Below, piece by piece: positions 31,501 to 34,500 of a DNA stretch of 64,000 nucleotides. The stretch lies in the NCBI RefSeq assembly GCF_009931435.1, contig NZ_CP043414.1. The stretch is one strand, 5' to 3'. The position numbers were made by a program. Position 1 is the first letter of the stretch. Each line of letters begins with the position of its first letter. The DNA is from Escherichia coli. Its GTDB lineage: Bacteria; Pseudomonadota; Gammaproteobacteria; Enterobacterales; Enterobacteriaceae.

Positions 31501-34500
31501 ATAGACGTGAATGAAATGGCAGTAAATATTATCTCGATGAATTAATAAGGCGCTGTGAAGGATAAGGGCAAGCGCAAAATTGCCAGATGCGCTACGCTTA
31601 TCTGGCCTGCGCGGTCATTGCAACATATTGAATATAAATGTTTTGTAGGTTTGATAAGGCGTTTACGCCACATCCGACATGAACAACACGCACTTAGCTA
31701 ATTATCAGAGGCACCTCGTAAGGCGCCTTTTTTTAACCGAAGCGAACATCTCGTCCGTGCGGTTCATCGAGATCCTGCCACGGACCAATTGAAATAATCC
31801 CCGTAGGGTTGATGGTCTTATGGCTGCGGAAGTAGTGATTACGGATGTGAGCGAAATTGACGGTTTCGGCAATTCCCGGCATCTGGTAGATATCGCGCAG
31901 GAAGCCATACAGATTCAGGTAATCGCTGATGCGGTGCTTATCGCACTTGAAGTGGGTGACATACACCGGATCAAAACGGACCAGTGTGGTCCACAGGCGA
32001 ATATCGGCTTCGGTTAGCTGGTTGCCGGTCAGGTAACGATGCTGACCTAAAATCTGTTCCAGCCGCGCCAGCGATTCAAACACTTTCGCCACCGCCTCGT
32101 CGTAGGCTTGCTGGCTGGTGGCAAAACCGGCTTTATACACGCCATTGTTAACGGTGTCGTAAATCCAGCCATTAAGTTCGTCAATTTTCGTTTGCAGGGC
32201 TGAAGGGTAGTAATCTCCAGCTTTCGCACCCAGCGCATCAAACGCGGTATTGAACATGCGGATGATTTCCGCTGATTCGTTGCTGACAATGGTGTGGTTC
32301 TTCTTGTCCCAGAGTACGGGAACAGTGACACGTCCGCTATAGTGTGGATCGGCGTGGAGATAAAGCTGATACAGAAACTCATGTTGATAGAGTGTATCGC
32401 CGGTTGCTCCCGGAAAACTGTCATCAAAGGTCCAGCCGTTTTCCAGCATTAACGGGTTCACTACGGAAACGGAAATAAACGGTTCCAGCCCTTTGAGTTT
32501 ACGCATGATCAGCGTGCGGTGCGCCCACGGGCAGGCGAGTGAAACATAGAGATGATAACGATCTTTCTCTGCGGCAAAACCACCTTTGCCAGTGGGGCCT
32601 GGCGCGCCATCGGCAGTGAGCCAGTTACGAAATGCGGAAGCTGAACGTTGAAATTTACCGCCGGTGGATTTGGTGTCGTACCAGGTGTCATGCCAGACGC
32701 CGTCAATCAGTTGACCCATTTTTCTCTCCTCCAATAGCAAAAACGAGGAGCGTTTCTCCTCGTTTGAGACTGATGGCAAACGCAAAACTGCCTGATGCGC
32801 TATGCTTATCAGGCCTACGAGGTTTCTGCAATGTATTGAATTTGCATGTTTTTGTAGGCCGGATAAGGCGTTCACGCCGCATCCGGCATGAACAACGCGC
32901 ACTTTGTCAACAATCTGAAACGAGGAGTGTTCCCCCTCGTTTTTTATCGTTAAGTATAGCGCGTACTTACCACTTTTTATTCAACAGACGGTCGATGCTA
33001 TACGCGCCCGGACCGGTAATCGCCAGCAGCAGGAATCCGCCAGAAATAGTCAGGTTTTTCATAAACATCAGCGAGTTCATGCCTTCTGCAAAATTGCTGT
33101 GAAATAAAAATGCCGTCAGCAGCGTAAAGCCCGCAGTAAACAGGGCAGTGGTACGTGTCAGGAAACCGAACAGGATTGCCAGACCACCACCAAACTCAAG
33201 CAGAATCACCAGTGGCAACATAAAGCCAGGGACACCCATCGCTTCCATATATTGTTGCGTACCCGCGTAGCCAGTAATTTTTCCCCAACCTGCCGTAATA
33301 AACAGAATCGGCATTAAAATGCGTGCGACCAGTACCCCAACATCTTCTAATTTTTTCATCTTACTCTCCACTGCGCCGCTCAGGCTGCTGATTGTTTTTT
33401 TGTGCAAGGGCGCGGTATTAGCGTCGTTGCTTTCGATGGAGAGAATCATAAACGTGGCGAAGCGTGATTGTTAGCAAGGAAAACTGTCAAAATTTTTCAA
33501 AAAATTTGAGGGATAAGGCCGGAATGTCTCCGGCCAGAGAGGAAGTTAACCGCGAAGCTGTTGTTGCTTGAGGGTTGTTTTCACCAGACGCCAGGCGCTC
33601 CATACACCAAAACCGCGTCTGGCCCAGCGGACCAGCATATTGGGATGACGAATCGTCCAGATAGCCATCACACTACTGCCAACCAGCGCCCAGGAGCGCA
33701 GACTCAGCAGCATATTCCAGCGACGATCATAAGCGCCTGTCGCCTCCAGCCATTCACGACGACTGGCGGAAAGATCCAGCCGTTGTTGCTGGATCTGGCT
33801 AAGCAGTTGCGCCTTACGTCGTTCACGTTCGACTTTACTGCTCACGGGACTCCTCCTCGAGCAGTTGCCGATCGTTTGCCAGCTCATGGCGCGTATGGCG
33901 CAGTAAGGTGGATTTACGCGATTTACGTAACGTCCAGATACCGCCAATGAGTGCCAGTAGCAGCAACACCACGGTGGTGGCAATCATCGCATTCAGGCGA
34001 TATTGCGGATCAACCGCCCAGATAATCAGCACCATCAGGCTCATAAGACCAAATGCAGCGAAAAGCATCGTCAGGCCCAGCATCAGTAAAAGCTGAAAGA
34101 GATTGGCTTTTTCCTCTTCCAGCTCCACCACCGCCAGCCGCAGACGTGTCTCCACCATTTCAACCATGATGGAAACAATTCGCTGCCCGATGCCCAGAAC
34201 GCTTTTACCGGGCCCTTGCGCGTGATGAGTGTCCGCCATAATTAACGACGCGACAGCAGAACGCCGAGCACTACACCGATTGCAGCGCCAATGCCCACGC
34301 CCGTCCACGGATTTTCACGCACATACTCATCGGCACGCGCCGCCGCGACACGGGTTTGTTTGGCAATGGCATCACCGGTTTCACCCAGGCGATAACGGCT
34401 CTGTTTCAGTGCCTGCTCCGCTTTGCTACGAATCTTACTCAACTCTTCTTTCGACTTCTCGCCAGATGAGCTAAGCACCTCTTCCAGCGTATCGGAAAGG

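Follow-up and report, generated by a model that had tools for sequence, protein, structure and literature searches.

The described structures closest to the stem-loop at the 3' end of yqjG are Rho-independent terminators, bidirectional intrinsic terminators, and the stem-loops that REP/BIME elements form in 3' untranslated regions. Like a Rho-independent terminator, the yqjG hairpin has a GC-rich stem of 7 to 8 bp closed by a tetraloop and lies 5 nt after the yqjG stop codon; unlike one, its tail in the sense direction in E. coli, UCUGAUAAUU, fails the terminator discriminant, and the canonical U7 tract is on the opposite strand. Bidirectional intrinsic terminators, reportedly described by Ju et al. 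in 2019, consist of a hairpin between an A-tract and a U-tract and typically separate convergent genes. The yqjG hairpin shares with them a palindromic stem usable both ways and an A-tract upstream in the sense direction, but it has a T-run on one side only and stands between co-directional genes. REP/BIME stem-loops, which block 3'-to-5' exonucleases and act as leaky terminators, are matched in that the yqjG hairpin is stable, lacks a U-tract, and adjoins a RIP element; in contrast to them, it is not REP sequence, is specific to its gene, and is older than the RIP insertion. By analogy, the hairpin likely works together with the RIP in defining or stabilizing 3' ends.

We analyzed this site in a 64,000-nt stretch of E. 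coli DNA (the window), whose source strain is not K-12 and whose intergenic stretch here shares 91.6% identity with MG1655. From left to right come yhaJ, yhaI, yhaH, the RIP, yqjG, and yqjF, with only yhaJ on the plus strand (Table 1). A preliminary description had taken the site for a plus-strand intrinsic terminator opposite yqjG and had named this minus-strand gene as its only neighbor. The gene yqjG is indeed on the minus strand, but the hairpin is flanked by two minus-strand genes, yqjG and yhaH, which are co-directional rather than convergent, and on the evidence below it is better regarded as the 3' hairpin of yqjG itself. We consider it likely that the stem-loop is the 3' hairpin of the yqjG transcript and descends from the ancestral Rho-independent terminator of that gene. 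The position of the hairpin, its conservation across species, the polarity of its tail, the RIP insertion with the accompanying duplication, and the allele frequencies were computed here; from these we infer the effect of the hairpin on RNA in either direction.

Table 1. Features around the yqjG hairpin (window coordinates)
Feature	Position	Strand	Remark
yhaJ	29540-30436	+	
yhaJ/yhaI shared hairpin	30459-30476		T-run on the yhaI (minus) side only
yhaI	30487-30843	-	
yhaH (DUF805)	31085-31450	-	follows yqjG downstream; has an upstream region of its own
Decayed second hairpin copy and native tail	31540-31561	-	copy 31549-31561, tail TTATTAATT 31540-31548; between the RIP and yhaH
RIP/BIME-1 (REP, IHF-type spacer, REP)	31562-31709		directly adjoins the hairpin
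Hairpin	31710-31727		arms GGCACCT (31710-31716) and AGGCGCC (31721-31727), as read on the plus strand; loop 31717-31720 (CGTA plus, UACG minus)
Private SNP	31724		C in the window; T in other E. coli, including the closest relative found (RMDEC465)
T7 run (A7 on minus)	31728-31734	+	overlaps the yqjG stop (TAA, 31735-31733)
yqjG, glutathionyl-hydroquinone reductase	31733-32719	-	CDS including stop; from the ORF and RefSeq annotation of homologous loci

The stem-loop and 7-T run first noticed, GGCACCT-CGTA-AGGCGCC-TTTTTTT, are present in the window and occupy 31710 to 31734; the interval given for them before, 31711-31737, was displaced by one base and extended 3 nt too far. The stem has 7 bp, or 8 on the minus strand if a flanking A-U pair is counted. 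Both arms occur as they had been read, but it had been overlooked that they are incompletely complementary on the plus strand: with C at 31724, the pair is a mismatched A·C in plus-strand RNA and a wobbling G·U in minus-strand RNA. Because of this mismatch, the plus-strand hairpin of the window, folded alone, has -7.1 kcal/mol, compared with -11.0 kcal/mol on both strands for the usual E. coli allele; on the minus strand, the window allele reaches -10.6 to -12.2 kcal/mol. When 46 nt around the hairpin were folded, the z-scores were modest (-1.5 and -2.2).

The T7 run is the complement of the yqjG TAA stop codon and the AAAAA that follows it; the minus-strand hairpin therefore begins 5 nt past the stop. 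The plus-strand "terminator" is this same palindrome read backwards, its U7 being supplied by the stop codon and five A's. On the plus strand there is thus a GC-rich stem-loop (7-bp stem, 4-nt loop) with a 3' U-tract, but it does not close a same-strand transcription unit, as no plus-strand gene was found between the yhaJ terminator (30476) and the hairpin. On the minus strand, a hairpin of conserved position directly follows a stop codon, but in E. coli there is no U-rich tract behind it; the tail has 3 T in 8 and scores -28 to -30. A stricter terminator scan listed the site on neither strand, because of the mismatch on the plus strand and the T-poor tail on the minus strand. An Rfam search in E-value mode across 29000-34500 returned no match at the hairpin and only weak REP-derived matches. 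The minus strand at 31725-31735 reads UAA-AAA-AAG and then the hairpin, and so contains the A AAA AAG heptamer, a known element of dnaX-type -1 frameshift sites; this heptamer lies past the in-frame TAA, is probably irrelevant, and was set aside.

Potential terminators were scored with a hairpin-plus-T-tail discriminant of the d'Aubenton-Carafa type with ViennaRNA energies, and the scores serve for ranking only. On both strands of the window, 19 sites scored above 0, compared with 1.45 +/- 1.0 in 20 dinucleotide shuffles, making such sites about 13 times commoner than in shuffled sequence; at or above 6.5, the score of this site, the counts were 10 and 0.7 +/- 0.8. Sense and antisense scores were -27.9 and +27.4 for the K-12 allele and -30.0 and +6.5 for the window allele, and the O157:H7 allele scored +15.9 on the plus (antisense) strand. 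The plus-strand terminator shape itself is real, with a canonical stem and U7 in the common E. coli allele.

Ownership of the hairpin was approached by comparing yqjG loci from 80 species representatives of the Enterobacteriaceae. In 68 of them, the first 45 nt past the yqjG stop fold with significant stability (median z, -3.9), and the best hairpin usually started 1 to 8 nt past the stop. Per-locus hairpin detection yielded 47 distinct stem sequences, among them GGCACC/GGUGCC, GGGCAUC/GAUGCCC, GGGCGCG/CGCGCCC, and GGCGUCC/GGACGCC. This pattern indicates that the position of the hairpin is conserved while its sequence turns over with pairing retained. The yqjG-sense score exceeded the antisense score in 62 of the 80 species. 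Sense scores were above 0 in 25 species and antisense scores in 3, of which 1 was marginal and the other 2 have yhaJ converging directly on yqjG; yhaH lies downstream of yqjG and is co-directional with it in 71 of the 80 species. Enterobacter, Lelliottia, Yokenella, and Pluralibacter carry hairpins with a canonical U5-7 sense tail, for example AGGGCAUC-AAUA-GAUGCCCU-UUUUUUAAUU. In Klebsiella, Kosakonia, and Kluyvera, among many genera, the sense tail is merely A/T-rich, with no U-run. E. coli is the outlier, at about -28 sense and about +27 antisense.

Stem energetics do not reveal the functional RNA strand. Of 74 loci, 48 have an antisense fold of marginally lower energy than the sense fold, the mean difference in favor of antisense being 0.44 kcal/mol. 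Assignment of the strand from wobble pairs was dropped, the symmetric internal G·U versus A·C count being 13:12 across species. A MAFFT alignment of 30 sequences gave a weak RNAalifold consensus (-0.96 kcal/mol) with the arms out of register, because loop lengths differ.

Within the genus, the A7 run was seen only in E. coli and is absent from the four other Escherichia lineages sampled. At the A7 position these carry TAAACAAAGG, TAGACAAAGG, TAACCACAGG, or TAGTAAAAGG, with ACAAAGG, CCACAGG, or TAAAAGG in place of the run. One C-to-A change makes the A7 run; the E. coli A7 is a single substitution away from the sister-clade state TAAACAAAGG. One sampled allele (locus L007) was sought in E. coli genomes without a match, and this locus therefore belongs to a different lineage.

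Among E. coli strains, the hairpin and A7 are nearly invariant. The K-12 version, with A7 and a perfect 7-bp stem, was found as an exact 61-mer in 4,539 of 5,426 complete E. coli genomes, and nearly all of the remainder lie 1 to 3 mismatches from it. The corresponding 61-mer of the window had no exact match in the same 5,426 genomes; C31724 is private to the source strain or an error. O157:H7 and O55:H7 have a 1-nt deletion in a hairpin arm (about window 31722-31742), which leaves a 6-bp stem at -7.7 kcal/mol; in these genomes yqjG also has Leu in place of Phe two codons ahead of its stop. Strain W46 has an A-to-G change at the closing pair of the stem, and the stem SNPs of W46 and of the window both give G·U in the sense RNA. 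In strain KOr024 (locus L003, 733-1510), an IS26 end adjoins the T7/A7 run right after the yqjG stop; IS26 has taken the place of the hairpin, the RIP, and the yhaH side, and yqjG is thereby joined to a truncated ptsP.

The loss of the sense tail in E. coli becomes intelligible when the RIP is considered. In Citrobacter and Salmonella genomes, which lack the RIP next to the yqjG hairpin, the order is yqjG stop, hairpin, TTATTAATTCA, and yhaH upstream region, whereas in Escherichia TTATTAATTCA is found beyond the RIP, after a decayed hairpin-like copy. In a MAFFT alignment, the RIP-free Citrobacter and Salmonella hairpin with TTATTAATT aligns to this distal copy. The distal copy no longer folds (z, -0.7 for the window and +0.7 for K-12), and the native tail is now about 170 nt from the intact stem. 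Escherichia sp. strain MOD1-EC7003 has the reverse arrangement: its distal copy is intact, with a perfect 12-bp stem (z, -6.25), and its proximal copy is degraded. Its hairpin (locus L010, 4117-4144), UUAAGCACCUU-GUAA-AAGGUGCUUAA, has the core common to the E. coli yqjG hairpin and lies between yqjG and a convergent yhaJ, yhaH and yhaI being missing.

The intact hairpin is not part of the repeated RIP unit. The RIP beside it is 82% identical to a second RIP of the window at 32775-32904, and homology between RIP copies stops 14 nt before the yqjG hairpin. The hairpin has no sequence relationship to what flanks the other RIP copies of the window, and it exists in RIP-free genomes. The 13 nt nearest the stem (31697-31709), UCUGAUAAUUAGC in the sense direction, are T-poor; whether they are the end of the RIP or a diverged copy of the tail is uncertain. 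A weak match to the REP-derived Rfam family naRNA4 was seen at 31648-31684.

The second RIP separates yqjF from yqjG (about 32766-32917). Only 88 of 5,426 E. coli genomes have it; K-12 lacks it and has a 69-nt spacer in its place. The yqjF terminator hairpin, single-copy in K-12, is duplicated here as 25-nt direct repeats on the two sides of the RIP (32741-32765 and 32918-32942; 88% identical). This RIP is a recent insertion. It also contains a match to the REP-derived Rfam family ES036/CssrF at 32811-32851 (38.4 bits, just above gathering). A RIP-like element at 13964-14074 follows just after the rnpB terminator (13911-13932), with an exact 14-nt flanking direct repeat, CGGAAAGATGAACG, at 13956-13969 and 14111-14124. 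The region around it is hypervariable and common to only 28 genomes, and a search there for an empty site yielded none. In these sequence arrangements, RIP insertion came with duplication of the terminator hairpin. That hairpin duplication is seen at two sites of the window, and the third site has its 14-nt flanking repeat. Together, the three RIPs suggest long target duplications, which are not described in the REP reviews consulted.

These observations are best explained by the following history for the yqjG hairpin. An ancestral terminator would have kept yqjG apart from yhaH, which has a promoter of its own. A RIP (BIME-1) would then have inserted at the hairpin in the Escherichia lineage and duplicated it; the yqjG-proximal copy would have kept its stem, now followed by T-poor sequence, and the distal copy would have decayed yet retained the native tail UUAUUAAUU. 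A later C-to-A change would have completed the A7 run. The reversal of polarity in E. coli would thus be due to the RIP insertion beside the stem and to the C-to-A change that completed A7. In E. coli, the sense-strand hairpin would be a weak terminator at best. More likely, it would act together with the REP hairpins as a stem-loop that defines 3' ends or blocks exonucleases. The plus-strand shape is best seen as a lineage-specific by-product with no demonstrated client, although a plus-strand role is possible; judging from its shape, it would probably stop polymerases arriving from the yhaH side, if that strand is transcribed. Several findings run against assigning the hairpin to yqjG: the E. 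coli sense tail fails the classical terminator discriminant, the sense tails of many other genera have no U-run, stem energetics and the weak alignment consensus do not point to the yqjG strand, A7 is fixed in E. coli, and the K-12 TRS and Term-seq tables list no yqjG-sense 3' end at the hairpin.

Published 3'-end maps were consulted at the K-12 position of the hairpin, about 3,252,016-3,252,033 in NC_000913.3. TRS places K-12 3' termini of yqjK at 3,250,409 (+), of yhaH at 3,252,711 (+), and of yhaJ at 3,253,271 (-), and its tables, thresholded and covered here for data sets from exponential growth in LB, list no terminus on either strand between these ends (PMC10687069). In the Term-seq data of Adams et al., the two sorted and thresholded lists jump from 3,250,409 to 3,255,325 or 3,270,216 (PMC7815308). 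Neither TERMITe nor SMRT-Cappable-seq has an entry for yqjG or yhaH, and a full-text literature search for yqjG and terminator returned nothing relevant. Transcription of yqjF-yqjG depends on a YhaJ-activated promoter, and yqjG is probably barely expressed in the media of the published maps. The check for 3' ends that the preliminary description had called for thus gave none on either strand in two K-12 data sets, the outcome it had named as refuting its reading; because the lists are thresholded and some are incomplete, and because of the YhaJ requirement, the absence of ends is weak evidence and not decisive.

The hairpin shared by yhaJ and yhaI offers a comparison. The primary yhaJ 3' terminus given by TRS (K-12 3,253,271) maps right after it, on the plus side (PMC10687069). 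Like the yqjG hairpin in the sense direction, it presents an A-tract and a GC hairpin with no U-tract; unlike the yqjG hairpin, it lies between convergent genes, and its T-run has an obvious client in yhaI. The yhaJ terminus shows that 3' ends can be set in vivo by a hairpin built like that of yqjG in the sense direction.

It might be argued that a dedicated plus-strand terminator evolved in E. coli, halts polymerases from the yhaH/RIP side at the very end of yqjG, and insulates yqjG from antisense transcription and head-on collisions. The common allele would suit such a task, with its perfect GC-rich stem, short loop, and U7, and the essential fixation of A7 in E. coli, against its absence from the other Escherichia lineages sampled, might mean that plus-strand use has been selected for. 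Transcription of the plus strand past yhaJ does exist: the Rho table of Adams et al. includes an end antisense to yhaI at K-12 3,253,150 (-), about window 30604 (PMC7815308). That end, however, is yhaJ read-through terminated by Rho about 1.1 kb before the hairpin, a scan of the plus strand from 29500 to 34000 showed no sigma-70-like promoter site, and no antisense 3' end is listed. Moreover, a single substitution separates the T7 run from the sister-clade state, the stop codon makes up half of the run, and the alleles of the window strain and of O157:H7 weaken the plus-strand stem. The sole plus-strand ORF ending nearby, at 31555-31701, was considered as a small gene or sRNA ending at T7 and rejected: its 48 codons are REP sequence, broken by 10-nt and 1-nt indels between strains. 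We therefore regard a dedicated plus-strand terminator as rather unlikely, and the task proposed earlier for the site, stopping antisense transcription or transcription derived from the RIP, finds no support.

A bolder proposal would be that RIP insertion and duplication, with the C-to-A change, inverted the polarity of the ancestral terminator, leaving an "orphan" that now acts only on antisense polymerases at the yqjG end, and that RIPs generally insert at terminator hairpins with target duplications of 14 to 25 nt. We think it unlikely that all of this holds.

Bidirectional action had also been suggested, and a true bidirectional intrinsic terminator would end both the yqjG mRNA and opposing transcripts. 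The palindromic stem with its A-tract on one side fits such a terminator, as do the symmetric A-run/T-run versions in species whose yhaJ converges on yqjG (L021, L057); two-way terminator sites also occur elsewhere in the window, at 13911-13932, 38842-38858, and 47470-47494. Against this, the sense side in E. coli has no U-tract, the flanking genes are co-directional, and the two K-12 data sets report 3' ends on neither strand, so that this suggestion is unsupported and, in our judgment, quite unlikely. That the site is a chance palindrome beside a chance T-run, or the terminal part of the RIP, is most improbable: the short stem, the low z-scores, and the abutting repeat would allow it, but the enrichment over shuffles, the hairpin at the same position in RIP-free genera, and its dissimilarity to the flanks of other RIP copies already contradict it.

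Taken as the 3' hairpin of yqjG, the site is an ordinary finding, a routine gene-end hairpin that carries little weight for biology at large; the RIP-associated hairpin duplications are its more interesting by-product. It does carry a caution, in that a palindromic stem beside a TAA-AAAAA stop context can pass for a terminator on the wrong strand, and cross-species comparison settles the ownership of a hairpin where reading a single sequence cannot. The coincidence of RIP insertion with duplication of terminator hairpins and loss of the T-rich tail at the retained stem has more potential, as it is relevant to the manner in which REP/BIME elements spread.
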